DNA of 64,000 nucleotides from Candidatus Parcubacteria bacterium (GTDB taxonomy: Bacteria > Patescibacteriota > Minisyncoccia > UBA6257 > HR35): NCBI GenBank assembly GCA_026004495.1, contig BPJG01000001.1, positions 277,133 to 341,132 of the forward strand, in the 5' to 3' direction. A model generated the notes under the pieces. The model did not search any database. It was not told the DNA's origin and saw only the letters and a list, made by a program, of their open reading frames with translations. The position numbers and the translations under genes were made by a program. Positions 20,148-64,000 of this stretch are shown here, piece by piece (the first letter of the stretch is position 1; every line of letters starts with the position of its first letter).

Positions 20148-20208
20148 AATATTTTTATTAATGCCAATAAATAAATTATAAATTCATTTTTAAATCTTTA
20201 AACTATAT

Positions 20209-20604: not shown

Positions 20605-20605
20605 T

Positions 20606-20932
20606 TTAACCTATCGAACCAGTTGAGGCTATTCTTTCTATCAATAAAACTAATGAATAAGAAACGAGTGCTGATACAAGTCCAATGATTATCCAAATTA
20701 AATTCTTGCTATAATTCTTAAATTCTTGTGGACTAACGATTATCTTTAATCCTGTAATTAATATCATAATAATCGAAAAAGCTAATGACAGCCAAATCAA
20801 AATACTAAATACCCATCTAAATAGCAAAAGCAGACAGGGTAGAACATCATCACAAACCAAAGGAACTGGAGGATTATTTGGAGAGGTCAAGCCAAAGCGG
20901 CTATCAAATGGATAGTTAACCTGAAATAACAT
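20606..20932 (-). CDS. VirB2/TrbC pilin-like two-helix protein
   Basis: A Cys pair (VCDDVLPC), then two helices. The ORF ends 1 nt before the start of the next paralog. Confidence 0.5.
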   Translation of the reverse strand: MLFQVNYPFDSRFGLTSPNNPPVPLVCDDVLPCLLLLFRWVFSILIWLSLAFSIIMILITGLKIIVSPQEFKNYSKNLIWIIIGLVSALVSYSLVLLIERIASTGSIG

Positions 20933-20949
20933 AAAAACTTATTTTAATC

Positions 20950-21321
20950 TTATTGACCAAGTTGTCCAGTTTGAACAAATCTTGATACCAAAGAAACGAC
21001 TGCCCAAGAAATTAAGGAAATTACTAAACCAATAATACCATAAATTATGTAATTCTTTCCAGAAGACATATCTCCCTTAAAAATAATTAAAATTCCTGCA
21101 TAGGCGAAAAATATAACAGCAAAACCTAAAGCTATCCAAATTAATACCCTAAAAACTATTTGAAATATATTGGTGATTGTTGACCTAGGATTATCTTGAA
21201 TTAGCCCACTGTCTGGGTTATCTACGTCAAATTGGGGCAAATCTTGGCCCTTAATGTAAATGGGTAAAAATAAACCAATAAAAAGATATATTAAAAAGCT
21301 ATAAATTAATAATTTTCTCAT
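20950..21321 (-). CDS. VirB2/TrbC pilin-like two-helix protein
   Basis: A signal-like N-terminus, then the hairpin ALGFAVIFFAYAGILIIFKGDMSSGKNY...ISLISWAVVSLVSRF. Confidence 0.5.
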   Translation of the reverse strand: MRKLLIYSFLIYLFIGLFLPIYIKGQDLPQFDVDNPDSGLIQDNPRSTITNIFQIVFRVLIWIALGFAVIFFAYAGILIIFKGDMSSGKNYIIYGIIGLVISLISWAVVSLVSRFVQTGQLGQ

Positions 21322-32527: not shown

Positions 32528-35497
<2,970 letters not shown>

Positions 35498-48097: not shown

Positions 48098-48235
48098 TAT
48101 TTTTAATTATAAAATAAAGTAATTAATATTAATAATAATTTTTGTTAATATGTGGATAATTTATAAAAAATATAAAAAAACAAATTTATTTAAAAATTTT
48201 TATATGTTAATAAATTCTTAATAATATTTTAATAT
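48098..48235. promoter_or_regulatory. Putative oriC core (dnaA-dnaN intergenic region) with a perfect DnaA box at 48151-48159
   Basis: A 138-bp, extremely AT-rich spacer. It contains TGTGGATAA (the DnaA box on the minus strand) plus the AT-rich repeats ATGTTAATA and TGTTAATAT. Confidence 0.45.
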
Positions 48236-49591: not shown

Positions 49592-49730
49592 AGAAAAATA
49601 AATTTTTTATATTATAATTATATTAAAGCTTAAGACAAAATTAAAATAAGGTAAATTATAATAATTATAAGTACTTTCGTCAATCTTTATTAAGTTAACT
49701 TAAATAATAATTATATATCTTAAATTTTAA

Positions 49731-49865
49731 ATGATAAAAATTAAAAAAATTAGCCTTAAAAAAAGAAAAAGGAAAATAGGGTTTTTATCAAGAAATAAGA
49801 CCAAGGGTGGGCAAAAAATAATTTCTCAAAGAAGAAGGAAAGGAAGAAAAAGATTAGCTGGTTAA
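49731..49865 (+). CDS. rpmH: 50S ribosomal protein L34 (44 aa), absent from the ORF track
   Basis: Hand translation gives MIKIKKISLKKRKRKIGFLSRNKTKGGQKIISQRRRKGRKRLAG, matching the L34 consensus (KRKR..GF..R..T.GGR.VL..RR.KGRKRL). The TAATG at the 3' end overlaps the rnpA start. Confidence 0.8.
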   Translation: MIKIKKISLKKRKRKIGFLSRNKTKGGQKIISQRRRKGRKRLAG

Positions 49866-50173
49866 TGTTAGCTAAAAAATTTAGATTTAAAAATTTTAAT
49901 TTTAAAAATTTTTTTAAATCAGATAAAATAAAAGCCGACAATTTTTTAGTTTATAGATTAAATTATAATAGTCAAAAAAAATTTGCTGTTTGGCCTTCTA
50001 AAAAAATATTTAAAAAAGCAGTTGAAAGAAATAAAATAAAAAGACAAATTTATGAAATTATTAAAAATAAAATAAATAAAATAGAAGATGGTTATTATTT
50101 AATAATTCCCTTAAAAAAAATAAAATTTGATATTTTAAAAAGAGAATTATTAAAAATTTTTATTAAACAATAA
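49865..50173 (+). CDS. rnpA: RNase P protein component
   Basis: A 102-aa protein. KKAVERNKIKRQIYEI matches the RnpA RNR-motif region. It follows rpmH. Confidence 0.75.
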   Translation: MLAKKFRFKNFNFKNFFKSDKIKADNFLVYRLNYNSQKKFAVWPSKKIFKKAVERNKIKRQIYEIIKNKINKIEDGYYLIIPLKKIKFDILKRELLKIFIKQ

Positions 50174-50781
50174 TGAAAGATATTTTTTATTCATATTTAG
50201 TTAATCCTATTATTTTAATATGCTTATATATTTTTTATTTCATAAAAGATGCCGGCTTAACAATTATAATAATAACTTTTTTTTTAAAAATAACACTTTT
50301 GCCTTTAAATTATATTATTTATCAAGAAGAAGAAAAGATTAAAAAGGTTAATAAAAAAATTAATGAAACTACAAAAAACATAAAAGATTTAGTTAAAAAA
50401 TCGGAGATAATATCTAAAATTTACAAAGAAGAAGGAATATCACCCTTTAAAAATCTTTTTCTCCAATTAATAAACTTACCTATTTTGATAGCTGTTTTTA
50501 TTGCTATTCCTCAGTTTTTAAATAAAATTAATAATTATTTCTTATTTAATTTTATGAATTTAAAATCTCCTAACATTACCTTAGGATTAATAGTTTTTAT
50601 GGCTCAATTATTATTAATTTTTTTCTTAACTGCTCCTGAACAAAGAAAGATCTCCTTATTTATCTCTTCACTTCTTGCTCCAATATTTTTTATTATTCCT
50701 TCAGGTTTATTGATTTATATTTTTGCTACTATTATATTTACTCTTTTAGAGCGAAAGGTTATCTTTGTTAATAAAGTATAA
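50173..50781 (+). CDS. yidC: YidC/Oxa1-family membrane insertase (short form)
   Basis: Conserved first-transmembrane-helix motif AGLTIIIITFFLKITLLPL. Multi-transmembrane protein of 202 aa. It follows rnpA. Confidence 0.65.
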   Translation: MKDIFYSYLVNPIILICLYIFYFIKDAGLTIIIITFFLKITLLPLNYIIYQEEEKIKKVNKKINETTKNIKDLVKKSEIISKIYKEEGISPFKNLFLQLINLPILIAVFIAIPQFLNKINNYFLFNFMNLKSPNITLGLIVFMAQLLLIFFLTAPEQRKISLFISSLLAPIFFIIPSGLLIYIFATIIFTLLERKVIFVNKV

Positions 50782-51876
50782 TTTAGCATCATTTCTGTTG
50801 TAAAAAATAATCCCTAGGGGCGTTAATTTAGGTTGGATGATATCAAAATCGCCGTCTATTTTCACTACTTGGAAAAAATCTTTTTGGGGATCATAAATTA
50901 TTAAATTATCATTAAATGATGACTTTAAATAATACCAATTTTCAATTTTGTTAAACCCTTGATCTTTAGGTACACCACAAATAAGCAATTCTTCGAAGGT
51001 ACACTTTTCTTTAATCGTACCAAAGGTAAATTCTTTACTGATGACATTATTTCTTCCATCAATTAATAATGACTTCCAAGAGTTTTCAATAAATGAAGCG
51101 AAAACTAAATCATTTTTATTAGTTATAAAACTCAAATATCTTTTAGGTGGGAAAATTAATTCTATACTTTTATTCATTTTTTTTAAATAAAGAGGTGAGG
51201 CAGGTGAATATTTCAAATTTTCAGCAATTAAAATTCCGTTAGTTAAAAAATCTATGTCAGGATTAAGAATAAATATATCCATAAAACGCGTTTCATTATC
51301 TTGAAATTTTGCTAAATAACCATTAGTAGTTAATCCTGAAATAAAAAGATAGGGGGTGTTTTGATAAAAAAATACCTTTTGAGTTAAGTAATTTAAAGAA
51401 TATTTTTTATCTTTTAAACGATCAATAAGATAAAATACATTTTTAGACTTTATAAAGAATCTATCGTTATTATTTGAGGGAAATAAAGCATAGATTATAT
51501 TTTCGTCCTTATATAATTCTTTATAAGATTTATCTTCAATATTATAAGTTCTTACTGTTTTAGATTGGGGGTCATAGGCATATACTTCGGGATAATTTAT
51601 ATTTGGAGAAATTAGGGGAAAGTCAAATAATAAAATTGGCTTTTTAGTAGTTTCCGTTAGCGAGGTTGTTGATATAATGTTTTCTAGGGTTGATGTTAGT
51701 GAGGGCAAATCTCTAGACTCTTTAATAGATTCTTCTTCTTTAATAGTAGATTCAGGTTCTTCTAAAAAAATAGTTTTTTCTGGTTTTTTAATAAAATATT
51801 CCTTATAAATTAAAATAACGAAAGCAATAAAAACTATTAAACCTAAACCAATAAAGATTTTTCTAATTAAATTCAT
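50746..51876 (-). CDS. Hypothetical membrane-anchored protein (last gene of the type IV secretion-like operon)
   Basis: A 376-aa ORF with an N-terminal transmembrane helix, a Ser/Thr-rich linker, and a beta-rich C-terminal region. Lies 6 nt downstream of the preceding gene. Confidence 0.45.
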   Translation of the reverse strand: MNLIRKIFIGLGLIVFIAFVILIYKEYFIKKPEKTIFLEEPESTIKEEESIKESRDLPSLTSTLENIISTTSLTETTKKPILLFDFPLISPNINYPEVYAYDPQSKTVRTYNIEDKSYKELYKDENIIYALFPSNNNDRFFIKSKNVFYLIDRLKDKKYSLNYLTQKVFFYQNTPYLFISGLTTNGYLAKFQDNETRFMDIFILNPDIDFLTNGILIAENLKYSPASPLYLKKMNKSIELIFPPKRYLSFITNKNDLVFASFIENSWKSLLIDGRNNVISKEFTFGTIKEKCTFEELLICGVPKDQGFNKIENWYYLKSSFNDNLIIYDPQKDFFQVVKIDGDFDIIQPKLTPLGIIFYNRNDAKLYFINKDNLSL

Positions 51877-51881
51877 TTAAA

Positions 51882-52520
51882 TTATTTTCTTAATTTTTTA
51901 ATTATTATAAAGCTTAATAAAGCTATAGTTAATAGCGATAACGCTGTTAAAATAATAATTTGGAAAAAATAATTTTGGGGTGGCGTAATTGTTGATATTG
52001 ATTGGGTCGATATATTATCGGTGTCTTGTTGAATAAATGTAGTTTGGGGATAATTAATGTTTTTAATATTTGGACAATCTAAGGGACACTTTTCCTCTTC
52101 TCCAGCTTCACATATATTGTTTTCGTTACAAACACTTATTGGCGATAAATCTAATTCTTCTTTTTTATTTTCTAACAAATTCTCTAATTCAACATAACCA
52201 AAATTAGAATAATTAGGTATGGCTATTATTTCAAAATTAGCCTCATTAGAAGGATTAAAAGTAGTTTCTTCAATTAAATTTCCTTTAATTGAAAAAACTT
52301 TTAATTTATAATTTCCGTTATCTGTTCTAATAATGGTTTCTTGGTTTTTATCTTTTGAAAAATCAATTGGTTTCTGATAATTAATTGAGATTTCATTCTG
52401 GTTTTTAATAAGATAAATTAAAATAAAATTATTATTTATTTCTTTTTCTTCTTCATTTAATATATAATCATCAGTCTCTAAATCTTCGGGCAAAATTGTT
52501 AATAGTTTATAATTTTCCAT
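51882..52520 (-). CDS. Hypothetical protein with a Cys-rich segment and a C-terminal transmembrane anchor
   Basis: A 212-aa ORF containing CNENNICEAGEEEKCPLDCPN and a C-terminal hydrophobic helix. Confidence 0.45.
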   Translation of the reverse strand: MENYKLLTILPEDLETDDYILNEEEKEINNNFILIYLIKNQNEISINYQKPIDFSKDKNQETIIRTDNGNYKLKVFSIKGNLIEETTFNPSNEANFEIIAIPNYSNFGYVELENLLENKKEELDLSPISVCNENNICEAGEEEKCPLDCPNIKNINYPQTTFIQQDTDNISTQSISTITPPQNYFFQIIILTALSLLTIALLSFIIIKKLRK

Positions 52521-52537
52521 TATTATAATTTTATATC

Positions 52538-53668
52538 TTATTTTTGATTTAATTTAATGTTGCCAATAATACAGACCTTAGCATAATCAGATTTTTTTTG
52601 ACCAAAACTATCTATCGCTTCTTTACCTATGCCAGCATAAAGATCTAACCATTTATCTTTTCCCCATATTTTGCCGCCTGAACCTGTATCAGTTATTATA
52701 AAAACATTATCTTTTATACCACAACTTACAGATTCGTATTCACCCCCCCCCTTTTTTCTTAAGCAGTCTATTATTTTAACTGCTTGATATTCACCATTTA
52801 CTGACCCTTTAAATACTGTACTTTCATTATCTCTGGCGGCTGTTTGACCGGGAATTACTGGTCCATAAGCTCCTCTAATATAATCATTAATTTCTGTTGA
52901 ACTGCTGATAATTAAATTTTCTGTAGTTGTTACATTTAAGGCACCTTCATAATGTTTTACTGATTCTTTTTGACTAGTTTCTGCTTTTGGGCAATTTTTT
53001 GTTCCTCTTCCTTCCATTTTAACCCAAGTAAATACCCAACCATCTTTGCACTTATCTAATTTTTTGCCAGACAACTTAGCAGTTTCAAGAATACCTTTGG
53101 CATTTAAAGGAGTTAAAATGCTTACAGTACCAGATGTTGTATTAATAATTCCCTTTCCTTGCATTGTTATATCTGATAAAAACTTATGTTTATTTGGTTC
53201 CTGTGGTAAGACAGGTGTATAATATTGAGTTGTTCTTATAGTTATAGGATTATTTATACAGGTTCGCTGAGATAAATCTTGTAATACTTTTTCATCTATA
53301 TTAGCAAGAGAAATATTAAAATTATTCCCGTTGATATTTAAATTTTGATTGTTTATAGTAAAATTGACTTTAATTACGTTGGTAGTTATTCTATAAACAA
53401 CAATTCGAGGATCAAAAATAAAAGGATTAATCCAATAAAGAATAGATCCTGAAACAAAAATAACAACTAAACCAATAATAGCGTTTCGCATCATACTTTT
53501 GCCCTCCATCTTAACATCAGGCACAACACTTAATAAATTCTTAAAAGCACCAAAAAGAAACATAAAAAAAGCCAACATTACAGCTAAAGCAACACCTAAA
53601 TTATATAAGCCCTGAAGACAGCTTTGAATAGAGTAACAATAAGAGTTAATAAATTCTTGGGGGTTCAT
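52538..53668 (-). CDS. Pilin-like two-helix N-terminus fused to a 3D-domain (lytic transglycosylase-like) C-terminus
   Basis: N-terminus: a Cys pair (SYCYSIQSC), then the hairpin GVALAVMLAFFMFLFGAF...AIIGLVVIFVSGSILYWINPF, matching the pattern of the 17201-21321 array. C-terminus: FIITDTGSGGKIWGKDKWLDLYAGIG resembles the 3D/MltA core (DTGGAI.G..IDLF). Confidence 0.55.
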   Translation of the reverse strand: MNPQEFINSYCYSIQSCLQGLYNLGVALAVMLAFFMFLFGAFKNLLSVVPDVKMEGKSMMRNAIIGLVVIFVSGSILYWINPFIFDPRIVVYRITTNVIKVNFTINNQNLNINGNNFNISLANIDEKVLQDLSQRTCINNPITIRTTQYYTPVLPQEPNKHKFLSDITMQGKGIINTTSGTVSILTPLNAKGILETAKLSGKKLDKCKDGWVFTWVKMEGRGTKNCPKAETSQKESVKHYEGALNVTTTENLIISSSTEINDYIRGAYGPVIPGQTAARDNESTVFKGSVNGEYQAVKIIDCLRKKGGGEYESVSCGIKDNVFIITDTGSGGKIWGKDKWLDLYAGIGKEAIDSFGQKKSDYAKVCIIGNIKLNQK

Positions 53669-54300
53669 TTTTTAATCATTATTTGATCAGAGGCTAATTC
53701 TTGGGAATTATCCAGATTATAAACCCTTAAATTTATCTTAATTTCTCCAGTTAAAGAACTTATATCCAATAGAAAAGTATTATAGTAATTAGTTTCATTC
53801 ACAGTCCAGACGTAAGCTAAATTATTAGAGGAAAAATTGTAAACTAATGGATAGAGTACTTCAGTTTTATTTAAATTATTTTCAGTTAATGGTAAGGCTA
53901 AGTTGTTATTTTTATCATATTTAGCAATTACAACTCGCGGAAGCTGTTTATTAGTAAAATAAAAATGCTTCTCTATCTCATAATTAAAATTTTTAGGGCT
54001 AAGAGTAACTATGCCTGATAATTTATTATTTATTTCTGGGATAAATAAAAAAGGTTTGTATGTTTTAATTTTTTCGTAATTATCACCTAAATCCACCTTC
54101 CATTCATATGACAATTCTTCGCTTGAATATTTTTTACCATTTATTAATATATAACCCTCAAGCCCAATTAACAATTCTTCTCTATTTTTTTTAAATGAAA
54201 AATATAAATTACTATCATCAACTTGATCTTGAGATTTTGCCTTTTGATAATTAATTAAAAATATAATTAAAAAAAATAAGAAAATTAATCTTTTAATCAT
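53665..54300 (-). CDS. Hypothetical secreted protein
   Basis: A 211-aa ORF with a signal peptide. It overlaps both neighbouring genes (4 and 8 nt), indicating operon coupling. Confidence 0.45.
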   Translation of the reverse strand: MIKRLIFLFFLIIFLINYQKAKSQDQVDDSNLYFSFKKNREELLIGLEGYILINGKKYSSEELSYEWKVDLGDNYEKIKTYKPFLFIPEINNKLSGIVTLSPKNFNYEIEKHFYFTNKQLPRVVIAKYDKNNNLALPLTENNLNKTEVLYPLVYNFSSNNLAYVWTVNETNYYNTFLLDISSLTGEIKINLRVYNLDNSQELASDQIMIKK

Positions 54301-54799
54301 TATTATATTTATAAGCTAAAATTTTAGGATAGATATAAAATAAAAATACAACTGATAAGGTTTCAATTGGTAGAGCATCAATAATCGCGCCAATAATAGG
54401 AATCAATTTAGTGGCGATAGAAACACTTAAAATAGATCTTATTATTCTGATAATTTTTTTGGCGTTATTTTTTATATCTTCAATATTCTTTTTAGCCAAT
54501 TTTCTTGCTCCATAATAAGAATAATCAAATTTATTGCTTTCTATCCAAAACCAAATTAAATAAGCAATATAAATTAAGCTTCCTATTATTCTTAATATCC
54601 AACCTACAATTCCTATGCTGGCTAAATCAATTAAACCAAAAATTATTCCTAGGACATCAACAAATAAAGCAAAAATTAATAAAATAAAAACACCACCATT
54701 ACCCCAAAACCAACCAACCTCTTCTTGGCTTTTAGGCAATTCATTTAAATAGTCTTTAACATTATTATTATTATTATTATTTGAATGAATAACTTCCAT
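54293..54799 (-). CDS. Small polytopic membrane protein (poly-Asn N-terminus, about 4 transmembrane helices)
   Basis: A 168-aa protein. The N-terminus has a run of seven consecutive Asn. Multiple hydrophobic helices follow. It lies immediately downstream of the VirB4-like gene. Confidence 0.45.
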   Translation of the reverse strand: MEVIHSNNNNNNNVKDYLNELPKSQEEVGWFWGNGGVFILLIFALFVDVLGIIFGLIDLASIGIVGWILRIIGSLIYIAYLIWFWIESNKFDYSYYGARKLAKKNIEDIKNNAKKIIRIIRSILSVSIATKLIPIIGAIIDALPIETLSVVFLFYIYPKILAYKYNND

Positions 54800-56590
54800 T
54801 TATTCTAAGGCTCTTTTAATAGCCAATAATTGTTCCGGCGTTGATTTAATAATTTGATCTTCGGCATATGAACCCAAAACATAAAGAGGAATTCTTTTAA
54901 ATCCAGCAATTAAAATACCTTTTCCTCTTTCTGATTGAAGCAGGAACATTTTTTCTCCTTCTGATAAGGAAAATACTTGTCCAATTAAATTAATAGTTGC
55001 TGGCGATTGTTTCATTAGAAAAACTATAGCAGCATTGGTAATAATAGGTTTGCCATAGGGAGAATTTAAAAAATCTTCAACATCTTGAGTAATAGTTGTG
55101 ATGGCTAATAAATACTTCCTGCCTCTTTTAATAGCATTAAGCAAAAAATTGGCCCCTGATTCATTTTTCATAATCCACCAAGCCTCATCTAAAATAACTA
55201 TTCTTTTTTTTCTTTGCCTTCTTATTTTATTCATTAAATCATTTAGAACCATATACATTCCTATTGGTCGTAATTCATCTTTTAAATCTCGAAAACCAAA
55301 AACAACTATTCTTTTTTCTAAATTAACATTTGTTTGTTGGTTAAGAAAACCGGAATAATTTCCTTGAGTATAAGGGTATAATTTTTCAGCTATATGTTTT
55401 CCTCCTTCAATACTCATCAAAACCCTCTCAAAGTCATTTAAGGTCGGAAATATTTCTATTTTAGCAAAATCAGAATCGGGAAAAATGTTAAAAGAAGTGT
55501 ATGTTTGACTTAAGGCTCTATCAACAATAGTAAGCTCTTCTGCAGTAAATTTATCGCCAATAATTATTTCCAGCAAACCTATAATATCAGCAATTTTTTC
55601 TTTATAAACCTCAGCTGGATCTTCGTTAGGTAAGGGAATTGGTAAATCTAAAGGATTAATTTTGTATTCAGATTTTAACGAAATAGGAATAAATGAGCCT
55701 CCGTAAATTTCAGCTATTGATTGATATTCATTTTCAGGATCCAAAACAATCACTTCCTGATTCATCATTAAACTCCTCATTATTTCTAACTTAGCTGTAT
55801 AACTTTTACCTGAACCAGAACGAGCAAAAATAACCATATGAGCATTTTCAAAGGCAAATCTATCAAATATAACTAAAGAATTATCGGCTAAATTTATTCC
55901 TAATAGAATACCATTTTCCATTGATAATTCGGAAGAAATAAAAGGAAAAAATGAACTGGCTGTTGAAGAGTTCATTAAATAGTTAACATTAAGCTCATCT
56001 AAGCATAGAGGCAGGGTAGAATTAAAAGCCTCTTGTTGTTCAAATACAACTGGCTTAGCTAAAATTAAACTACTCTCTAAAATTTTTAAAATCTTTTTTT
56101 CTTTTATTGATAATTCCTCCGTATTATCAGAAAAAATAGTTAAATAGACACCAACGTTTAAAATTTTTTCTGTACCTTGAACAATGGCATCTCTTAAAAA
56201 TTCAATATTTTGATAAGCGGTTTCTAATTCAGGAGATCTAGCCATTCCTCTTTCTTGTCGTTCATTAATTTGACTTTCTATTCTTAAAAGTTGTTTTTCC
56301 AATTGTTTTAAGATAGTAGAAGCATCACGAGGAATAAAAAATAAGGATAAATTAAAAATTTCTTCTAGAGAAATAATTTTTTCTAACCAGCCAGCAAATA
56401 AAAATTTAGGATAATTAATAATAATTAAAGTTTTTGCGTAAATCTCTCCTATTTGGAAATCAGAGACATTAAAAATTACGCCCGGCGGAGCAATTATATT
56501 TTTTATTTGATTAAATTTATTATCCTCTTTATTTTCCTGATTTTGTTGATTGTTCTTTATTTTTTTAATAAAAGGAAAATTTAATTTCAT
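54800..56590 (-). CDS. VirB4/TraC/TrbE-like type IV secretion ATPase (AAA_10 / DUF87-type)
   Basis: Walker A VIFARSGSGKSYTAK. Walker B RIVILDEAWWIM; the DEAW motif is characteristic of VirB4-family ATPases. Total 596 aa. Confidence 0.7.
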   Translation of the reverse strand: MKLNFPFIKKIKNNQQNQENKEDNKFNQIKNIIAPPGVIFNVSDFQIGEIYAKTLIIINYPKFLFAGWLEKIISLEEIFNLSLFFIPRDASTILKQLEKQLLRIESQINERQERGMARSPELETAYQNIEFLRDAIVQGTEKILNVGVYLTIFSDNTEELSIKEKKILKILESSLILAKPVVFEQQEAFNSTLPLCLDELNVNYLMNSSTASSFFPFISSELSMENGILLGINLADNSLVIFDRFAFENAHMVIFARSGSGKSYTAKLEIMRSLMMNQEVIVLDPENEYQSIAEIYGGSFIPISLKSEYKINPLDLPIPLPNEDPAEVYKEKIADIIGLLEIIIGDKFTAEELTIVDRALSQTYTSFNIFPDSDFAKIEIFPTLNDFERVLMSIEGGKHIAEKLYPYTQGNYSGFLNQQTNVNLEKRIVVFGFRDLKDELRPIGMYMVLNDLMNKIRRQRKKRIVILDEAWWIMKNESGANFLLNAIKRGRKYLLAITTITQDVEDFLNSPYGKPIITNAAIVFLMKQSPATINLIGQVFSLSEGEKMFLLQSERGKGILIAGFKRIPLYVLGSYAEDQIIKSTPEQLLAIKRALE

Positions 56591-57217
56591 TTATAAATTA
56601 TTGATTAATTCTTCAAATATATTTAATGGTGCCATTCCCCATCGCAAATTAGGATTATATAATTCATAAAATAATTGTAATATTTCGCCTGTTTTTAACC
56701 TAATAGGAATTAGGCCCGTAATTGATAGTTTTTCTGAAATATAAGAAACTCTGGTTTCTAGTTGTTCTAATTTTTGTCTATAATTTTCATCCTTTTTATA
56801 ATCTTTTTTACCAAACTTACCTCCAATTGAAACAACTTCACTTTGATAAGGAATAATCAAATAAAAAATTTTCTTCATAACATTATGGGTCTCAATATAA
56901 TCCTTTATAAATTTAATATACTCTTCTAATTGAACTTTTATTAATGGTTCTGTTTCTTCTTCTAGTCTTTCTTTTAGAGTATTAAGATATTTTTCAATAT
57001 AAGCCAATCTAGAAATAACTAATATTTGTAAGTTAAAATCAATCCCATCTAAAATTTCTTTAAAATTACCAATAGTAATTTCTCTTTCTTTTTCTCCTAA
57101 AATATTAAAATTTATACCTGGAACAACTAAAATTGCCCTTAAACTACCATCTTCCATTATAATTATGTCATCTCGAATATCTTCTATTTTTATTAAATTA
57201 GTTGTTAAATCACTCAT
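56591..57217 (-). CDS. Hypothetical soluble protein (operon member)
   Basis: A 208-aa ORF directly abutting both neighbouring genes. Confidence 0.45.
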   Translation of the reverse strand: MSDLTTNLIKIEDIRDDIIIMEDGSLRAILVVPGINFNILGEKEREITIGNFKEILDGIDFNLQILVISRLAYIEKYLNTLKERLEEETEPLIKVQLEEYIKFIKDYIETHNVMKKIFYLIIPYQSEVVSIGGKFGKKDYKKDENYRQKLEQLETRVSYISEKLSITGLIPIRLKTGEILQLFYELYNPNLRWGMAPLNIFEELINNL

Positions 57218-57724
57218 TTATTTTTTAGGCAATTTGGGAATAGGAAAATTGATATAAGGATCTTGAGGATTATAACCATGTTTATGAGCATATTGAATTA
57301 ATTTTGAAAAATGAATTTTTTTAACCTCTTTTTCGATATCTAACTTCTGATTATTCAATTCTTGTTCTAATAACTTAAAATATTTTTGAACCTCTGGTAC
57401 CTTAATAACGTTTTTCATTATTTGAAAATTTCCCCTCCAAATAAATCTTCTATTGGAAATTAATATTTTTATCAATTTTGGCAAAAAACTTATAATATAC
57501 TTATTATTAATTTTAAGCCATCCTAAAATAATAGCTAAAAAAAAACTTATAAATAATACAATTATGGCAATTAAACCAGGCAAAAGTTTATAAGCTGCGT
57601 AAGAAACTAAAAAAGCGCCAAAAAGTAAAAATAATTGCTTTAATGTAATTCCTACGGGTCCAATTAAAATTTTATCTTCAACCGTGATAAATTGTGGAAC
57701 ATTGAATCTCATTTTTAATTTCAA
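57218..57724 (-). CDS. Two-helix membrane protein, putative VirB3 / TcpE / PrgI-like
   Basis: A 168-aa protein with two adjacent hydrophobic helices near the N-terminus. It lies upstream of the VirB4-like ATPase, the usual position of VirB3. Confidence 0.35.
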   Translation of the reverse strand: MKLKMRFNVPQFITVEDKILIGPVGITLKQLFLLFGAFLVSYAAYKLLPGLIAIIVLFISFFLAIILGWLKINNKYIISFLPKLIKILISNRRFIWRGNFQIMKNVIKVPEVQKYFKLLEQELNNQKLDIEKEVKKIHFSKLIQYAHKHGYNPQDPYINFPIPKLPKK

Positions 57725-57739
57725 AATTAAATTATAATT

Positions 57740-58531
57740 TTAATATTGAGATAAATCAATTATTCCTTCTTCTGGCGGTGATTTTTTCTGTTGTTTAATT
57801 ATTATTATTGATGATTTATCTTCACTTTCTTTTTTAAGTTTTTCCATTTCTTCTTTTGAGGATTGAGTATTGGTTTTTAACCCCTCTTCTTTTAATTGAG
57901 GAATATTAAATGTTAATTTTTCTTCGTCTTTATCCTTGCCTAATTCATCAATTGATTCCTTAAATAATTTTTTAATAGATTCTTTATTTGAGGATTCCAG
58001 ACCTTCTGTTTTTAATTTAGGGATTTCAATTTTAATAGTTTTTACCTCATCTGGTTTTTGAATATTAATTGCCGAAACAATATTTTCTTTTTCTTTTCTA
58101 GGTGGAATTACTTTTTGAAGATTTAAAATTTTCCCAGGTTTTGTTTTTGCTTTAATCTCTTGAATTCTTTTAAGTAAATTGGCAATTTCAGGAGGGGAAG
58201 ATTTAATTTCTTTAGTTTCTTTTTCTTTTTGCCATAAAATATTTATTTTAGGAATAAATTGAGAAAATAAAATATAAGCCATTTGATTAGCATCATTTTC
58301 ATTAAGACTTAATCTTTTTATAATTTCATCTTTAAGTTCCATAATACTTTTAGGTTCAAAAACTTTAAAAATTAAATCCTGAAGAAGATAAATAAAATCA
58401 ATCTCTTTATTTTCATTAATTTCAAATTTTTTTAAATATTCTTCTAAATAATCATAATATTCATTAGAATAAATAAAATTTCTAACATTCGTTGGAGAAT
58501 TAATATAATTATGACTAAAACTAACTGTCAT
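57740..58531 (-). CDS. Hypothetical Lys/Glu-rich protein with an internal repeat
   Basis: A 263-aa ORF. It contains the repeated segments IPKLKTEGLESSNKESIKKLFKES and IPQLKEEGLKTNTQSSKEEMEKLKKES. Confidence 0.45.
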   Translation of the reverse strand: MTVSFSHNYINSPTNVRNFIYSNEYYDYLEEYLKKFEINENKEIDFIYLLQDLIFKVFEPKSIMELKDEIIKRLSLNENDANQMAYILFSQFIPKINILWQKEKETKEIKSSPPEIANLLKRIQEIKAKTKPGKILNLQKVIPPRKEKENIVSAINIQKPDEVKTIKIEIPKLKTEGLESSNKESIKKLFKESIDELGKDKDEEKLTFNIPQLKEEGLKTNTQSSKEEMEKLKKESEDKSSIIIIKQQKKSPPEEGIIDLSQY

Positions 58532-58620
58532 TATATAATATTATTATAAATTTATTTTTTCTTTTTAATCAAAAAATATTGGTGCTTTTAGTCGTTTTAT
58601 GTTTTTATTATTTGATTATA

Positions 58621-60768
58621 TTATTGATTATTATTATTTGTTTCTTCATTTTTTTCTATAGTACTTGTGCTTGGTTTCTCAACTGGTCTTGTTTGAAGTG
58701 CTGATTGAAGTTGAGATATTAATTTATTTAATTCTTCAGAGGGTACATCTTTTATATCTACTTGAATATTTAAATTATTCATTATTTCACTTAATTCATT
58801 TCTTAATCTATCTGCAGTTAATGACATTACATCTAAGCCACCGGTTATATATCTTTGTAAATAAGCTTCTAATATTTGTTCTCTTTCTCTTTCGGCTTCT
58901 ATTAATTGTCTTAAAATATTATCCATAATTTCATTAAATACTCTATAATGAGGAGTTTTCTTTATAGTATTTTCTTCACTCTGAAGAATGGTTTCTAATC
59001 CCCACTCTCTTATTTTTTTAATATTATTAGGATCGGAAAAGAAATTAATTTTTCCTCCCCGCGTCATATTATTGATTAAAAATTGAACCAATTCTCCTCT
59101 TTCTTTTTCTTGAATTTGAAGTAATCTTTCTAAATCTTCTAAGGTAACTCTATTGAAATCTAGACTGGATGCTAATTTTTGCATTGCTGTTCTTTTATCT
59201 CCCCTGGCTACATCATCAAAAGAGCATTTAACTCTTTGGCAAATAATTTTTCTTGCCTTAATATCATTTTGGAGTTCAGGTGATTGACTATAAATTTTAA
59301 ATATTTCATCTGGTGATTTATCTCTACTTACAAGCCGGGTAAAATTATATAAATCTTCACCCTTTAATTTTTTTATAGCTTCAGCAATTTCATTTAAGTT
59401 TTTATATTTATAGACTTCCCACATAGCTTCAATTGCCTCCTTACTTCTTTCTTTTACTGGTTTTTGCATTCTTTCTCCTGTTCCCCTTATCCTTTTAGCT
59501 ATCAATGCCCAAGTCGGACCTCGCTCGGCAACTGTATTAGCAATTTTATTTAATTTTTCACCTAATCCATAAAGAGGTTTTCTAGCTAATGATTTTCCTC
59601 CTTCAGCTATTAAGGAACCTGTTTTAAGCCAAGTCCATTTAGTAAAATCATAACCAGCCTTTGAGAATCTTCCGCCTAATCTCAGGGCTAATATTGTGAC
59701 TATTAAATAATAAATTATAATAATTAAGATTCTACTAGAATAAACAAAAGCTGGAGCCAAAAGAGAAATTAATGCTCCAATACCTGTTGTTGGTTGATTT
59801 TTAGTACTATCTTGAATATCACTTATCATAAAAATATCATTAATAATTTGATTAGCGCCAGCAGTTGAGGCAAAAAGAAAAATTCCTATTGAAACTAATA
59901 AAATTAAAATCAAAATATTTATATTCCAGGTAAAAAATGTTTGCCACCATTGATCAAAATATCTTTTTTGATTAGGCAGAATATAAGCTATACAAGCTAG
60001 GGGAAGTAAACCAACTAAAAAGGAGATAATAAAGAATTTTCCTACGGCAATACCGGCAAACATAGCCATTATTACTGATCCAATAAAACTCATAAGTAGA
60101 AGAAATAAATTAAAAGCTAAATCAGTGACAACTTTCGTCATATCTATTTGTTCTCCTGTAAGATTTATATTTGATATCTGTTCGTTAATTTGGTTCCCTA
60201 TCTCTTTAGCTTTATCACCAATAAGCAGAGCCATTGAAAGGTATAAAGTGTTACCAAAATCGGTTTGATAAATATTATTATCCTTAGTTGAAACTTCACC
60301 TACAATTTGAATAACAGCTTTAGTAAGGTGCCAAAAGAAAGAAAAAAATTCTTTAGCCAAAACAAAAGTAAAATTAATAAGAAAAGCAACTATTAAAATT
60401 CCGATTAATAATCTTCGAGCTTCATCTTCTTTATTTAAAATAAATTGTAAGCCAGCATATAGACTTAGAAAAATTAAAACTACATAAGCAATATTTTTAA
60501 AAAATTCCCATAAAATAGGTGCAACTGTTAAATGGCTAAAAGGATTAAGAAGAATAAAAGTGTTAATAATAAATGCTGAAAGTTGAGCAATGGCATCAAA
60601 AAATAATTTTACAGCTGGAAGAATAAATCCTAAGATGTAATTTATTAAAGTCAATAAAAACTCAGTGATTTTGCCCCCAAAGTACCAAAAAGCTCCTACT
60701 AATAAAGCTCCAGCAAGCAATGGTATAATAGCACCTCTTTGAGATAAATGCATTTTATTTAATTTCAA
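58621..60768 (-). CDS. Large polytopic membrane protein, putative VirB6/TrbL-like channel component with a cytoplasmic C-terminal domain
   Basis: A 715-aa protein. About 8 hydrophobic helices fill the first 420 aa. A charged, coiled-coil-like C-terminus follows. Its start overlaps the upstream giant ORF by 14 nt. Confidence 0.45.
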   Translation of the reverse strand: MKLNKMHLSQRGAIIPLLAGALLVGAFWYFGGKITEFLLTLINYILGFILPAVKLFFDAIAQLSAFIINTFILLNPFSHLTVAPILWEFFKNIAYVVLIFLSLYAGLQFILNKEDEARRLLIGILIVAFLINFTFVLAKEFFSFFWHLTKAVIQIVGEVSTKDNNIYQTDFGNTLYLSMALLIGDKAKEIGNQINEQISNINLTGEQIDMTKVVTDLAFNLFLLLMSFIGSVIMAMFAGIAVGKFFIISFLVGLLPLACIAYILPNQKRYFDQWWQTFFTWNINILILILLVSIGIFLFASTAGANQIINDIFMISDIQDSTKNQPTTGIGALISLLAPAFVYSSRILIIIIYYLIVTILALRLGGRFSKAGYDFTKWTWLKTGSLIAEGGKSLARKPLYGLGEKLNKIANTVAERGPTWALIAKRIRGTGERMQKPVKERSKEAIEAMWEVYKYKNLNEIAEAIKKLKGEDLYNFTRLVSRDKSPDEIFKIYSQSPELQNDIKARKIICQRVKCSFDDVARGDKRTAMQKLASSLDFNRVTLEDLERLLQIQEKERGELVQFLINNMTRGGKINFFSDPNNIKKIREWGLETILQSEENTIKKTPHYRVFNEIMDNILRQLIEAEREREQILEAYLQRYITGGLDVMSLTADRLRNELSEIMNNLNIQVDIKDVPSEELNKLISQLQSALQTRPVEKPSTSTIEKNEETNNNNQ

Positions 60769-63700
60769 TCTTTTTTGGCTTAATAAAATTAATTGTCTCG
60801 AATATATTGCCTGTTAAATTTTTAACGATTAAAGCTAAAAACTTACCAAAATTATTTGCTGATCCTCCATCACCTCCATCTTCTTCTAGGGGCGGACCCG
60901 AAGAACCACTACTTTGATTTCTTATTTGAGCATTAATAGAAGCTTCTAATTCAATAATTGAATTATTATAATCCTCACATAACGAAGAAAGTTCGGTATC
61001 GATATTATTTAATTCTTCTATTATTTTTTGTATTTCTTGATAAACATTATTTATTTGATTTTGATCAATTCCTGATTGTTGGAAAATCTTATCCATTTCA
61101 TTGTCATGTTGTTGCTTTAATTTAGTTAATTGAGTATTTAATTGATTTATTTGATTTTGAGTGTTAATAATATTATTTTTGTTTATAAAATTAAATAAGT
61201 CTTTAAAATTAGATGAAATTCTTAATAAAAGTCGAAATACTTCTCGAGTATTAAGTTGAATTGAATAATTATTAGGACCTTGTAAAGTAAAGGAATGATT
61301 TAAGTCAGACAATTTTGGATCACTGGTATTGTTAATAAATTTTAAAGTTCTTGAAGCAATCTCTTCTAAATTAGTAAAAAAAGTATTTAATCTATCAATA
61401 TCTGGTTTAGTCATGGTAGCAGTACCGTTAAGGAAATTGTTTAATTGACTAGTAACTGCAGTTAATAAATTCTGTTGATTTTCTGAAACAGCTGCTGATT
61501 GCGGAATGCTATATAAAATAGCAAAAATTTTAGCTGACATATCTGCAATCACAAAATCTGGATGTCGTTCAATATTAATAGACGTTCTTTTTGACCCAAA
61601 AACATCTTCTGTTATAATTATCGATGCTAAATTTGTATTAAAAAAAGAGCCAATATTATTAAGCCCTGCTATTGCATTAACTAATTCAGGATAAAAATGG
61701 TCATAAAAACTTAACCTTATTGAGGAGCCTAAGCTTAAAATTTTTATATTTGAGCCATACTCCGAATTACTAAATGGAATATTAAATATAGGCTCATGAT
61801 AATAATACCTAGGATCAGGATGAATGTCGTTTACATTGGCATTAAGAAAAAGATTGCTAATTTTAGGATTGTTAACATCTCTTAAAATTTGATCTATTTT
61901 TTCTTGAATTTGTTTTTTTGTTTGCTCAATGTCTGATGAAAGTTTATTAATTTCTTGATTTAACCTATCAATTTCTTTAGTTATAGTTGAATTATTTAGG
62001 TTATTTAAAGTAGTAATTAATTGATTTAATGTTGTACTGGCTAAGTTGAGGTGTTGTTGAGTGTTAGAACTTAATTCGTTTAACCTTGATGAGATATTCT
62101 CTAGTCCATTAGAATAATTATTAAGTTGACCCAAGAATAACCCTGGATTGTTAAGAAATGCTATATAATTTGTAGTTATGGTGGTAATAGCATCTGTTAT
62201 GGTAGCATAATAAGCTGAGTTTTTATTTTGTAAATTAGGTATAAGCTCAATAATTTGTTTAATTTCGATTAATTTATTTTGAACGTTAAATGTATTCATT
62301 CCTAAACCAAGTGCTCTGTTGTCAAAAACAACATTTTGACAGACTTCTTTTAGCCCAGTAACTCCAGAATTATTTAATTTGTCACAATCTTTTTGTTGTT
62401 GAGAGTATATTTTGTCCAAATTATTTTGTATAAATAATTCTTGGTTTTCTCCTTTATTAAAATCAGCAAAGCCTTTATCGATTAAATTAAATAAACTACT
62501 GTTTATCCATCCCCTGATAAAGGTTGCAATAACATTACCTGAAGAAGATTGATTAAGAAAATCAAATGTATTTTTTGAAATTTTTTCTCGTAAATCTTCA
62601 TAGGTAGCAATTGGATTTTTAATTTCGTCCTTTTTAATACAAAAACTACTTTCACCAGTGATTCCACTCTTTCTTTGCTGGTCAGCAATTTTTTTATATT
62701 CGTTAATGGTATTTTGTAAGCTAGCTATTTTATTATTATCAGGGTTTGATTTTTTTTGTTCTTCTTCTAATTGAGCTTGAAGGGTTTCTAATTTAGCTTC
62801 AGCATCAGTTTTAAGACAGGCAGTTTTAGGCATAAATGTTGTTCCGCCTGGTTCATTAGAATAGGCATTAAATGTTGATAATTCTTCATCTAATTCTTGA
62901 AATATTTTAGCTGTTGAAGTATTAAAAATTAAATTACAATTAGCAATTTCAATAGCCTGATTAATAATTTGCTCTTGATCAATTAGTTTATTTTGATCAA
63001 GATTATTTCTTGTTTGTCCCAAAAGATTCCTTAAGTTAATAATTTTAAAAGGATTAGCAAAGAAATTTCCTAATTTAAGGGCTAAATTTTTTTCATTATT
63101 TTCTGCCCTAGCCAAGATTTGATTAGTTGGTTTAATATAGGCAGTTAAAGTAGCTGAACTTTTTTGAACTATAACCGAAGGACTTAAGCCTAAGGCTGTA
63201 TATATGTGAAAGGTATTGGGATCATTAGGATCACAATTAGGTTTATTTAAAATACTAAATCTATTTGTTTTAGTTATCGATCTAAAAATTTTTTTTGCTG
63301 CCTTAGGATCTTTTGATTTATCCATAAATGCACTCGCTTTAGCATTTAGTTCCTTTAATAAGTTATAAGCACAAGCTTTTACTTCAAAGGGTAAACATTG
63401 AATATTTTCATCTTGAGTATAAGGTTTTAATAATTTATCAACAGCTCGAGTATAGGCTTGACTCATCCTTAAGTATCTATATTGTTGAATATCAGGAATA
63501 AAATTCTTGGATATTTTATTATAGACCAAATTTTCTAAAGTAGATTTTAATTTAAATTTAAAATAATCTTGGGAATCACTAAGTCCTAATTTTATTCCTG
63601 TTTCAAGTTGGGTAACAAAATTTTTTGCTGTTTCTTCAATGCTTTTGCCAATTAATCCTTGGGAACCCTTATCATCAGTAGGCACACTACCACCACCAAA

Positions 63701-64000
63701 TAATCCTCCCAATCCTCCCAAAAGATTTCCTAAAAAATTACCAACAATACTAGCAATTTTAGACATGCCCTCCATTATTAATTGATTTTTTACCATTTCA
63801 ATAAATGTTTTAAAATTAAAATTAAAATTACCCTTACCAACACCAGGCATTGGTAGGGGTAGATAACCATAATCAGGAACAGCATTTTCTAAGCACTCAA
63901 TAACTTGATTTAAATTATTAACTATAGTAGGAAAGTTTCTTGAAATACAACCTGTATTAATCCCAGATGACCCAACACAAGATCTAAGATTATTAAAATC
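60755..64000 (-). CDS. Very large protein (>1080 aa, N-terminus beyond the window) with a Gly-rich segment and coiled-coil/Asn-rich regions; first visible gene of the type IV secretion-like operon
   Basis: The track ORF 60755-63850 begins at an internal ATG. Hand translation of the minus strand over 63851-64000 (DFNNLRSCVGSSGINTGCIS...YGYLPLPMPG) shows the frame stays open to the window edge. It contains GNLLGGLGGLFGGG and long Q/N/L-rich heptad-like stretches. Confidence 0.55.
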   Translation of the reverse strand, partial: DFNNLRSCVGSSGINTGCISRNFPTIVNNLNQVIECLENAVPDYGYLPLPMPGVGKGNFNFNFKTFIEMVKNQLIMEGMSKIASIVGNFLGNLLGGLGGLFGGGSVPTDDKGSQGLIGKSIEETAKNFVTQLETGIKLGLSDSQDYFKFKLKSTLENLVYNKISKNFIPDIQQYRYLRMSQAYTRAVDKLLKPYTQDENIQCLPFEVKACAYNLLKELNAKASAFMDKSKDPKAAKKIFRSITKTNRFSILNKPNCDPNDPNTFHIYTALGLSPSVIVQKSSATLTAYIKPTNQILARAENNEKNLALKLGNFFANPFKIINLRNLLGQTRNNLDQNKLIDQEQIINQAIEIANCNLIFNTSTAKIFQELDEELSTFNAYSNEPGGTTFMPKTACLKTDAEAKLETLQAQLEEEQKKSNPDNNKIASLQNTINEYKKIADQQRKSGITGESSFCIKKDEIKNPIATYEDLREKISKNTFDFLNQSSSGNVIATFIRGWINSSLFNLIDKGFADFNKGENQELFIQNNLDKIYSQQQKDCDKLNNSGVTGLKEVCQNVVFDNRALGLGMNTFNVQNKLIEIKQIIELIPNLQNKNSAYYATITDAITTITTNYIAFLNNPGLFLGQLNNYSNGLENISSRLNELSSNTQQHLNLASTTLNQLITTLNNLNNSTITKEIDRLNQEINKLSSDIEQTKKQIQEKIDQILRDVNNPKISNLFLNANVNDIHPDPRYYYHEPIFNIPFSNSEYGSNIKILSLGSSIRLSFYDHFYPELVNAIAGLNNIGSFFNTNLASIIITEDVFGSKRTSINIERHPDFVIADMSAKIFAILYSIPQSAAVSENQQNLLTAVTSQLNNFLNGTATMTKPDIDRLNTFFTNLEEIASRTLKFINNTSDPKLSDLNHSFTLQGPNNYSIQLNTREVFRLLLRISSNFKDLFNFINKNNIINTQNQINQLNTQLTKLKQQHDNEMDKIFQQSGIDQNQINNVYQEIQKIIEELNNIDTELSSLCEDYNNSIIELEASINAQIRNQSSGSSGPPLEEDGGDGGSANNFGKFLALIVKNLTGNIFETINFIKPKKIEIK

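Follow-up and report, generated by a model that had tools for sequence, protein, structure and literature searches.

The minus-strand operon described here very probably encodes a chromosomal type IV secretion system (T4SS) of the Patescibacteria-clade type, with origins in the MPF-FATA systems of monoderm bacteria, carried by a Paceibacteria-type MAG (Ca. Parcubacteria bacterium KatS3mg094), and serving epibiotic interaction with a host cell rather than conjugation. This reading draws on sequence comparison and on analogy with a genetically studied relative. It agrees with an initial annotation of the window (i.e., the whole 64-kb stretch of DNA analyzed), which had proposed a minimal, nonconjugative envelope machine derived from a T4SS: the ATPase is a VirB4, and no relaxase or VirD4 gene lies upstream. 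The operon type was already published between 2023 and 2025, and nearly all ultra-small Patescibacteria (CPR) carry one. The additions made by this locus are modest, namely, recurring fusions of a pilin hairpin to wall hydrolases and a small, clade-restricted family of 1148-aa proteins.

Operon layout and conservation

An ORF listing (translation table 11) returned 11 minus-strand ORFs at 50746-64000, in agreement with the coordinates and close packing initially reported. They are separated by gaps of 5, 17, 0, 0, 0, and 15 nt or overlap by 4, 8, and 14 nt, apart from a single larger gap of 89 nt (Table 1). This gap may hold an internal promoter. A promoter scan placed TTGATT-18-TATAAT within it, at 58572-58543; such matches are common in DNA of 25% GC (123 found versus 91 expected), and the scan is uninformative. 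A terminator scan detected no terminator-like hairpin in the gap. An alternative genetic code (UGA recoding), considered for CPR, was rejected, since table 11 yields long, tightly packed ORFs throughout.

Extension past base 64000, suggested in the initial annotation, recovered the rest of the giant ORF and a twelfth gene on a contig (L081) that matches the window at 100% identity across 3246 nt. The operon consists of 12 genes, the first of which lies beyond base 64000 together with 67 codons of the second. Upstream of g11, this contig encodes a 218-aa transmembrane (TM) protein (g12), tRNA-Thr, DivIC, and UPF0102/YraN, and three relatives (L001, L004, and L006) have the same upstream content. 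Co-occurrence of the gene set in related genomes, which had been proposed as a check, was borne out, and the order of the genes is kept; because of this conservation, they are regarded as real genes rather than chance ORFs. No fold or family was assignable for five or six of the twelve operon proteins.

Table 1. Positions of the operon genes, their chromosomal neighbors, and the pilin array in the window
Feature	Position	Strand	Description	Source
Pilin array	17201-21321	-	Seven genes for VirB2-like (T4SS-type) pilins	PF18895; by eye
dnaN	46970-48097	-		Pfam
dnaA	48236-49591	-		Pfam
rnpA	49865-50173	+		Pfam
yidC	50173-50781	+		Pfam
g1	50746-51876	-	376 aa; N-terminal TM anchor and large extracytoplasmic domain	
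g2	51882-52520	-	212 aa; acidic, Cys-rich segment and C-terminal TM anchor	
g3	52538-53668	-	VirB2-like hairpin and MltA/3D-like lytic transglycosylase domain	
g4	53665-54300	-	211 aa; exported or N-terminally anchored	N-terminal hydrophobic segment (residues 1-19)
g5	54293-54799	-	168-aa membrane protein; two hydrophobic blocks (about four helices)	
g6	54800-56590	-	VirB4 ATPase (middle and C-terminal P-loop domains)	NCBIfam, Pfam, PDB
g7	56591-57217	-	TrsD-like; 208 aa	NF045975, TIGR00929, TrsD
g8	57218-57724	-	PrgI/VirB3-like two-helix membrane protein; basic C-terminal tail	Pfam, hydropathy
g9	57740-58531	-	263 aa; soluble, no TM segment; between VirB6 and VirB3	
Intergenic gap	58532-58620	-	89 nt	
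g10	58621-60768	-	Extended VirB6-like polytopic membrane protein	Hydrophobic blocks, fold comparison
g11	60755-64000	-	Large secreted protein, cut by window end	Frame open to base 64000
g12	Just beyond base 64000		218 aa; one N-terminal TM segment	Seen on L081

A VirB4 motor encoded by two genes

The ATPase g6 had been called a DEAW-type VirB4, and its matches classify it accordingly. It belongs to NCBIfam family NF045971 (conju_CD1110; 3.9e-106; 356 bits against a cutoff of 325; profile positions 182-734), matches Pfam P-loop_TraG (8e-25) as well as AAA_10 and DUF87, and aligns with the VirB4 C-domain in the PDB (4ag5; 1.4e-31); its translation shows the Walker A sequence GSGKS and a DEAW motif. 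All but two of its best 80 genome relatives are titled as members of the CPR/Patescibacteria group or as an unassigned "bacterium" MAG, the exceptions being titled Mollicutes and Humimicrobiaceae.

The initial gene list was right in including VirB4 but had not recognized that it is split. The product of g7 matches NF045975 (1.9e-10; profile positions 104-234), TIGR00929 VirB4 (positions 19-158), and TrsD (1.1e-3); by these matches, it is the detached N-terminal domain of VirB4, and the predicted motor is encoded as two polypeptides. A separate TrsD-like ORF stands beside virB4 in 70 of the 71 related loci with enough upstream sequence. In the window, the TAA stop codon of g7 and the ATG of g6 are adjacent in-frame codons. 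A sequencing error or read-through was considered and rejected: relatives keep two genes, and the split is taken as real because the counterparts in L004 and L006 overlap out of frame.

Membrane partners of the motor

The basic protein g8 (net charge, +17), with a predicted hairpin at residues 19-74, matches Pfam PrgI (3.6e-5; 24.7 bits, just under the curated cutoff of 27) and, weakly, TcpE (0.031). According to BLAST, its orthologues immediately precede the TrsD-like gene in 40 loci. The membrane protein g10 was initially listed as polytopic, which holds (approximately 7 hydrophobic blocks lie within residues 1-370, and the C-terminal domain after them is hydrophilic, helical, and approximately 340 aa long), and as 715 aa long, which probably does not; the start is probably the ATG at 60753, located 1 nt after the g11 stop codon and yielding the 710-aa product of the NCBI record, rather than the TTG at 60768. 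Its predicted assignment to VirB6 was recovered by fold comparison alone, as sequence-profile searches of the PDB returned nothing useful for the VirB6-like family. VirB6 is found in 58 of 60 related loci.

The third member of this part of the operon, g9, has no hydrophobic block and no Pfam, NCBIfam, or PDB match; it is kept in 7 close loci, and a similarly sized ORF is found at this position in a Giovannonibacteria locus (L018). Sequence and profile searches of g12, g4, g1, g2, g5, and g9 identified no VirB8-like component. Of these, g4 was considered as a VirB8 analogue and rejected, its sequence resembling (by eye only) tandem beta-rich repeats rather than NTF2.

Chromosomal setting

The genes dnaN, dnaA, rnpA, and yidC (46970-50781) are a marker of the replication-origin region. 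The operon adjoins them, an arrangement shared by dozens of related species-level genomes; where at least 9 kb is available downstream of virB4, dnaA lies downstream in 39 of 41 related loci, at a distance of 1.9 to 9.7 kb (median, 5.3 kb). The same gene order with the same housekeeping flanks across dozens of species-level genomes argues for vertical inheritance rather than a mobile island, and the GC content of the operon equals that of its flanks. It is thus very improbable that the locus is an ordinary ICE (conjugative element), whole or as a remnant, located near the origin by chance, with a relaxase and coupling protein encoded elsewhere, even though the best VirB4 family is a conjugative one (CD1110) and the second best is the Mycoplasma ICE VirB4 (NCBIfam). 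The window does contain a serine recombinase and two DNA methylases (643-4551), but these are 46 kb away, in a separate patch of higher GC.

The gene content bears on the same alternative. The initial annotation had seen no relaxase, coupling protein, or VirB11, and none was found in the 64-kb window or in the 3 kb immediately upstream (relaxase, T4CP [VirD4/TcpA], and VirB11), where the 218-aa gene is followed by tRNA-Thr, divIC, and yraN. No relaxase or T4CP match was obtained among window ORFs of at least 90 aa, using Pfam and, for those with no Pfam match, NCBIfam; the Pfam search covered 41 such ORFs, apart from three of 91 to 108 aa and three overlapping longer ORFs on the opposite strand. 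The parts of Quinonero-Coronel et al. 2025 (PMC12102498) on which we draw report that virB4 and T4CP genes often lie far apart and that many Patescibacteria genomes carry VirD4-like genes elsewhere, as an ICE with scattered parts would predict, but also that any relaxase is present in only 103 of 3,035 Patescibacteria genomes.

Pilins and a putative hairpin-hydrolase fusion

The seven-gene pilin array of the initial annotation is present, 30 kb away from the operon, but its members are predicted to be VirB2-type T4SS pilins, not type IV pilins. Three of them (20209-21321) match PF18895 at 1.2e-6 to 3.9e-5, and hairpins in the remaining four were recognized solely by visual inspection of their translations. 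Two of the seven have large additional domains (523 and 278 aa). The array probably supplies the pilus subunits of this machine. The other genes cited in support of that annotation (comM, pilB, and the lamin-tail-domain protein) were also located elsewhere in the window; pilB encodes a 554-aa ATPase of the PilB type that carries an MshEN domain and is not a VirB11.

Within the operon, g3 had been described as a pilin-3D fusion. Its pilin half stands: a hairpin at residues ~14-85 matches T4SS_pilin (PF18895) at 8e-6, just under the Pfam curated cutoff, and this family was matched in 8 of 9 orthologues too. The 3D half (residues ~145-376) is weaker, with a Pfam 3D match of 0.059 in g3 itself and 7.5e-7 in one orthologue (L007); the putative 3D assignment comes from motifs and this orthologue. 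Among PDB profiles, only E. coli MltA was matched (2ae0 and 2gae), not significantly (E = 1.4), in an alignment that pairs YYxP and DxGGxxKG..xDxYxGxG and covers D297 and the catalytic Asp308. The TDxG and xLDLY (LDLY) residues are invariant in 4 orthologues; the first Asp is not invariant. These features make g3 a candidate for the VirB1 role. The partner of the pilin hairpin varies among such recurring fusions, the wall-hydrolase domain being MltA/3D-like here and C39-like or CHAP-like in relatives.

Exported and anchored proteins

The giant protein g11 exceeds 1080 aa, as initially stated, and in full comprises 1148 aa (KatS3mg094_329), including a signal peptide of the Sec type; the description as Gly-rich did not hold (Gly, 5.1% overall, with one Gly-rich patch at approximately residues 151-182). 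It is predicted to be mostly alpha-helical. Each of its 14 Cys residues is conserved fully or nearly so, and the C-terminal motif FKPKxIxIK is also conserved. Its AF2 model is of low confidence (pLDDT, 57.8; pTM, 0.37) and gave no PDB match at E <= 1e-3 in Foldseek; NCBIfam returned only coiled-coil-level matches. The g11 family is very small and clade restricted, with no detectable relative outside its small clade.

The remaining envelope proteins lack significant or meaningful family or PDB matches (g5, g4, g2, and g1), and a PDB profile search with g12 gave nothing useful. They differ in conservation, g5 being kept in only 3 close loci, g2 in 4 close loci, g1 in 7 loci, and g4 in 11 loci by profile search. 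The TM segment of g2 spans residues 183-211, and its net charge is -15. That of g1, the last gene of the operon, spans residues 1-31, and the 3' end of this gene overlaps the convergent yidC by 36 nt. Two apparent beta-rich repeats (YEWKVD and YVWTVN) were noted in g4, judged by eye only.

A bolder interpretation of g3 and g11 is that the hairpin is a true pilin module and not a mere anchor, so that hydrolases would be built into the T4SS pilus or sit at its tip and be delivered to the host wall, while the 1148-aa Cys-rich helical protein would form an extracellular shaft or contact device; such an enzyme-armed conjugative-type pilus for breaching the host appears unlikely.

Proposed function

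As we infer from solved T4SSs, VirB4 hexamers would dock on VirB3 and VirB6 in a single membrane and extract the VirB2-like pilins from it, and the pilins would polymerize on the VirB6 platform to yield a pilus or conduit. The pilin-anchored hydrolase would locally open the peptidoglycan, and g12, g11, g4, g2, and g1 may form or decorate the extracellular part. The genetics of Southlakia epibionticum suggest that such a machine would serve epibiont-host contact or the transfer of protein or other macromolecules. In that species, Wang et al. 2023 (PMC10633639) described a pilin-bearing cluster, without relaxase or T4CP, that is essential for epibiotic growth; essentiality of a T4SS for such growth is known only from this one Saccharimonadia species (PMC10633639).

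The initial annotation had offered two uses, DNA uptake and host-cell interaction, of which the second fits the published genetics better. In Southlakia, comEC is needed for transformation but dispensable for growth, whereas the T4SS is essential (PMC10633639 and PMC12857230), so that the essential role is not exerted through ComEC-dependent uptake. A DNA importer (ComB- or Ced-like), in which the VirB4/VirB6 core and the pilins would pull in environmental or host DNA for a cell unable to synthesize nucleotides itself, is therefore improbable. It would fit CPR auxotrophy, would need neither relaxase nor T4CP, and recalls both the position of comM, divergent beside the VirB2-like pilin array, and the association of T4SS loci with comF, recG, and radA in class ABY1 (PMC12102498). 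The matches of g6 to the archaeal importers CedB (2.8e-16) and CedD (6.7e-8), however, lie far below its score to CD1110 (59 bits versus 356), and Pfam and NCBIfam detected no ComB- or Ced-specific partner (CedA) in the operon.

Few machines have been tied by genetics to epibiotic life in this very large bacterial radiation, most of it uncultured; Patescibacteria T4SSs are among them. To these systems the locus adds a clean and complete Paceibacteria-type example from a 634-kb contig, with a simple set of parts (i.e., a split VirB4, a VirB3, an extended VirB6, one putative hydrolase anchored by a pilin hairpin, and a small number of exported proteins). It could help comparative or structural work and leaves the picture published in 2023-2025 unchanged; the one detail that may merit a systematic survey is the recurring fusion of VirB2-like hairpins to varied wall hydrolases.

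Comparison with known systems

Compared with the Gram-negative VirB/R388 system (7o3v and related structures), homologues of VirB5, VirB7, VirB9, VirB10, and VirB11 were not detected here, a single membrane is involved, and VirB6 carries the hydrophilic C-terminal extension. The closer likeness is to monoderm MPF-FATA systems (pCF10 Prg, C. difficile CTn CD1110, pGO1/pSK41 Trs, and the Mycoplasma ICE), with which the locus shares (i) VirB4, PrgI/VirB3, and a polytopic VirB6-like protein, VirB4 being of the CD1110 family above its curated cutoff; (ii) a separate TrsD-like N-domain, as in pGO1; and (iii) the lack of an outer-membrane core and, following VirB4, a membrane-anchored wall hydrolase (a putative one here). 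Unlike those systems, it has no relaxase, T4CP, oriT, or PrgB-type adhesin, it is a vertically inherited chromosomal locus rather than part of a mobile element, and it is accompanied by VirB2-like pilins, which Gram-positive systems lack (PMC12102498 and PMC12857230).

Southlakia ML1 (SEML1_0004-0019; PMC10633639) belongs to class Saccharimonadia, whereas the genome here is of the Paceibacteria type, but its cluster likewise adjoins dnaA and dnaN. Both loci run in one direction through a VirB6-like protein, PrgI, a small TrsD-like protein, VirB4, wall hydrolases (putative here), and exported proteins rich in beta structure. Both also have proteins of approximately 1000 aa in the cluster and PF18895 pilin arrays, and neither cluster contains a relaxase or T4CP; the position of g4 parallels that of the Ig/PEGA-like exported protein SEML1_0005. 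They differ in their hydrolases: Southlakia has 0006 (lysozyme-like plus cysteine proteinase) and 0007, a 1113-aa protein that ends in a DD-peptidase, and the locus here has an MltA/3D-like domain anchored by a pilin hairpin. The Southlakia pilin array lies inside the cluster rather than at a distance, its 0012 protein is NTF2-like (VirB8-like), a match not obtained here by sequence or profile search, and the secreted 1148-aa protein here has no detectable relative beyond a small clade.

Quinonero-Coronel et al. 2025 found T4SSs in 2,417 of 3,035 Patescibacteria genomes (PMC12102498). Genes with no family match are drawn there merely as grey boxes, and neither sections 12-14 nor a full-text term search of that paper mentions pilin-hydrolase fusions or the 1148-aa secreted protein. 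TrsD, PrgI, VirB6, VirB2 arrays, and the absence of a relaxase are described there for Patescibacteria T4SSs, and proximity to dnaA, dnaN, and rnpA is noted among most classes, Paceibacteria included. As far as the parts of that paper drawn on here define them, all hallmarks of the Patescibacteria-clade T4SS are present in this locus, including a VirB4 related to MPF-FATA.

Organization and conservation of the operon

The eleven ORFs of the operon (g1 to g11, g1 being the last gene; see the table below) are co-directional and are separated by gaps of 0 to 17 nt or overlap by 4 to 14 nt, with a single 89-nt gap at 58532-58620. This agrees with the closely packed minus-strand gene set described in the initial annotation. 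The reading frame of g11 is open up to base 64000, and yidC, rnpA, dnaA, and dnaN lie directly downstream of the operon. The GC content of the window is about 25%, and that of the operon is no different from its flanks. By exact matches, the window belongs to "Candidatus Parcubacteria bacterium KatS3mg094", in which its contig measures 634,165 bp.

Conservation was assessed across the 80 best related genome loci. The full order from g11 to g1, followed by the same four chromosomal genes, is intact in three of them (L001, L004, and L006); L002 keeps this order to its contig end, and L007 keeps it except for g2. A VirB6-like ORF is located upstream of virB4 and in the same direction in 58 of the 60 profile matches, and ORFs with a pilin module occur downstream of virB4 in 45 loci. 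dnaA is found 1.9 to 9.7 kb (median, 5.3 kb) downstream of virB4 in 39 of the 41 loci with enough sequence. The conserved gene order and the placement of dnaA indicate a chromosomal system inherited vertically rather than a mobile element.

Features of the operon and of the rest of the window
Feature	Position (nt)	Strand	Assignment or predicted topology
Operon (g1-g11)	50746-64000	minus	eleven ORFs
g1		minus	N-terminal anchor (hydrophobicity scan)
g2		minus	C-terminal anchor (hydrophobicity scan)
g3	52538-53668	minus	VirB2-type pilin hairpin + C-terminal domain
g4		minus	exported (hydrophobicity scan)
g5		minus	~four TM helices (hydrophobicity scan)
g6	54800-56590	minus	VirB4 ATPase
g7	56591-57217	minus	TrsD-like protein
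g8		minus	PrgI/VirB3-like protein
g9		minus	soluble (hydrophobicity scan)
g10		minus	extended VirB6-like membrane protein
g11	to 64000	minus	large secreted protein
Gly-rich patch of g11	~63656-63751	minus	residues ~151-182
DNA methylases (N6/N4)	643-1431; 1437-2300	minus
Large serine recombinase	2992-4551	plus
Methylase/recombinase patch	643-4670
505-aa protein	9078-10595
418-aa protein	10837-12093
Pilin array	17201-21321		VirB2-type pilins
comM	21450-22964
23S rRNA gene	32533-35487		complete

VirB4 motor and associated proteins

The g6 protein matched the NCBIfam profile conju_CD1110 (3.9e-106; 356 bits against a curated cutoff of 325) and the Pfam families P-loop_TraG, AAA_10, and DUF87, as well as the solved VirB4 C-domain 4ag5 (1.4e-31). 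By these matches g6 is a VirB4 ATPase, as had been proposed, and the failure to classify with VirB4/TraC that the initial annotation named as a refutation did not occur. Its alignment to the VirB4 profile begins only at position 182, and the product of the preceding gene, g7, aligns with N-terminal positions of VirB4 and also matches the TrsD family; judged by this alignment, g7 is the N-terminal domain absent from g6. Of 71 related loci, 70 have a separate TrsD-like ORF ahead of virB4. In the window, the ATG of virB4 directly follows, in the same frame, the TAA codon that ends the TrsD-like gene (56588-56596), and the two genes also share a frame in L001. The split is a genuine two-gene arrangement, because in both L004 and L006 these genes overlap in different frames. 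The g8 protein is PrgI/VirB3-like, with a match (3.6e-5) slightly below the cutoff. Searches of g9, g5, g4, g2, and g1 against Pfam, NCBIfam, and PDB profiles yielded no assignable family.

Pilin hairpin and putative wall hydrolase

The pilin hairpin of g3 matched PF18895 (8e-6), as did eight of nine orthologues. Its C-terminal domain matched the Pfam 3D family only weakly (0.059; 7.5e-7 for one orthologue), and the only PDB profile matches were nonsignificant ones to Escherichia coli MltA, in which the alignment is collinear across the YYxP and DxGG...xDxYxGxG motifs, including the catalytic Asp308. We regard this domain as MltA/3D-like, an assignment that stands at the motif level for the window protein. 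The hairpin module is highly conserved (54 to 80% identity) across proteins with differing C-terminal domains (P0059-P0066); elsewhere it is fused to Peptidase_C39_2 (~1e-15), CHAP (weak, 9e-5), or domains without assignment, and KatS3mg094_599, a paralogue encoded by the same genome, carries another C-domain. At orthologous operon positions, the domain behind the hairpin varies by lineage. This recurrence of a conserved hairpin with varied domains points to a family of wall hydrolases, anchored by pilin hairpins, that would occupy the VirB1 position; we consider this a lead rather than a finding.

Large secreted protein and the upstream end

The sequence past base 64000 was read from a Logan contig (L081) that is 100% identical to the window across the shared 3246 nt. 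At full length, the g11 product has 1148 aa and carries a Sec signal peptide. Its C-terminal motif is conserved, and each of its 14 Cys residues is fully or nearly so. The earlier description of this protein as Gly-rich does not hold overall (Gly, 5.1%). A hydrophobic Gly-rich patch (GNFLGNLLGGLGGLFGGGS; L081 positions 3251-3346) resembles a glycine-zipper or membrane-active segment and is conserved in part among relatives. The family is tiny, with 16 cluster representatives in a set of 1.84 billion proteins, and was found in 5 of the 80 related loci. The predicted model was of low confidence, and its fold matches were generic helical bundles.

Upstream, the large gene adjoins a gene for a 218-aa protein with a single TM segment, after which come tRNA-Thr, DivIC, and UPF0102/YraN; L001, L004, and L006 have the same order. 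Neither a relaxase nor VirD4, which according to the initial annotation would have marked an ordinary conjugative element, was found upstream of the large gene in L081 or these three relatives. Within the window, relaxase and coupling-protein families matched none of the 41 scanned ORFs (those of at least 90 aa, apart from three of 91 to 108 aa and three overlapping longer opposite-strand ORFs).

Other genes of the window

The array previously annotated as seven pilin genes is present, its members being VirB2-type pilins; it is transcribed divergently from comM, which was confirmed together with the lamin-tail-domain protein. Two array members are long: in one (523 aa) the pilin hairpin is internal and has large domains on both sides, and in the other (278 aa) it is N-terminal and the C-domain is rich in Cys. 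The pilB product was rejected as a VirB11, being a 554-aa PilB-type ATPase.

The methylase/recombinase patch abuts tRNA-Glu and tRNA-Cys genes, and GC content at 2001-4000 is 0.36 versus ~0.25 elsewhere. The patch resembles a small integrated element or a restriction-modification island and seems to have no relation to the T4SS, which is 46 kb distant. The 23S rRNA gene is isolated, with yebC and a mechanosensitive-channel gene as its neighbors; neither a 16S nor a 5S gene was found in the 64-kb window. Unlinked rRNA genes are common in CPR genomes, which the lone 23S gene fits. The 505-aa protein has only weak ClpA/ClpB-like AAA similarity (3e-9, far under the cutoff). The 418-aa protein is TIGR00375-like (3.5e-64), scoring 217.5 bits against a curated cutoff of 326.6, with no Pfam match at 1e-3.

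Proposed mechanism and comparison with known systems

By analogy with solved T4SSs, VirB4 (the TrsD-like protein plus the ATPase) would dock onto VirB3 and VirB6 in a single membrane and would power the extraction of VirB2-like pilins and their polymerization, with VirB6 as the platform. The MltA/3D-like enzyme, anchored through its hairpin, would open the peptidoglycan, and exported or anchored proteins would make up or decorate the extracellular part.

In Southlakia epibionticum, an "apparent T4SS" (SEML1_0006-0019) is essential for epibiotic growth; it resembles Gram-positive conjugative systems and has pilins but neither coupling protein nor relaxase (Wang et al. 2023, PMC10633639). According to the tables of that paper, the cluster has the same architecture adjoining dnaA and dnaN, with beta-rich exported proteins, wall hydrolases, VirB4, a small protein similar to TrsD, PrgI, a large protein, and two proteins that resemble NTF2 and VirB6, respectively. 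From the Southlakia genetics, we infer a role in host-cell interaction rather than in conjugation or ComEC-dependent DNA uptake.

Quinonero-Coronel et al. (2025, PMC12102498) report VirB4 in 2,417 of 3,035 Patescibacteria genomes, as a monophyletic clade nested within MPF-FATA. They describe TrsD, PrgI, VirB6, and VirB2-like pilins and arrays, a scarcity of relaxases, and a location near dnaA, dnaN, and rnpA in most classes, including Paceibacteria. A 2025 review counts these systems as a recognized T4SS type (PMC12857230). These descriptions, together with the VirB4 classification and the genes found upstream, bear out the initial reading of a nonconjugative, T4SS-derived machine; they also show that the kind to which the operon belongs was already known. 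The hairpin-hydrolase fusions go beyond this published picture, and the small family of the 1148-aa protein extends it, both as leads only.
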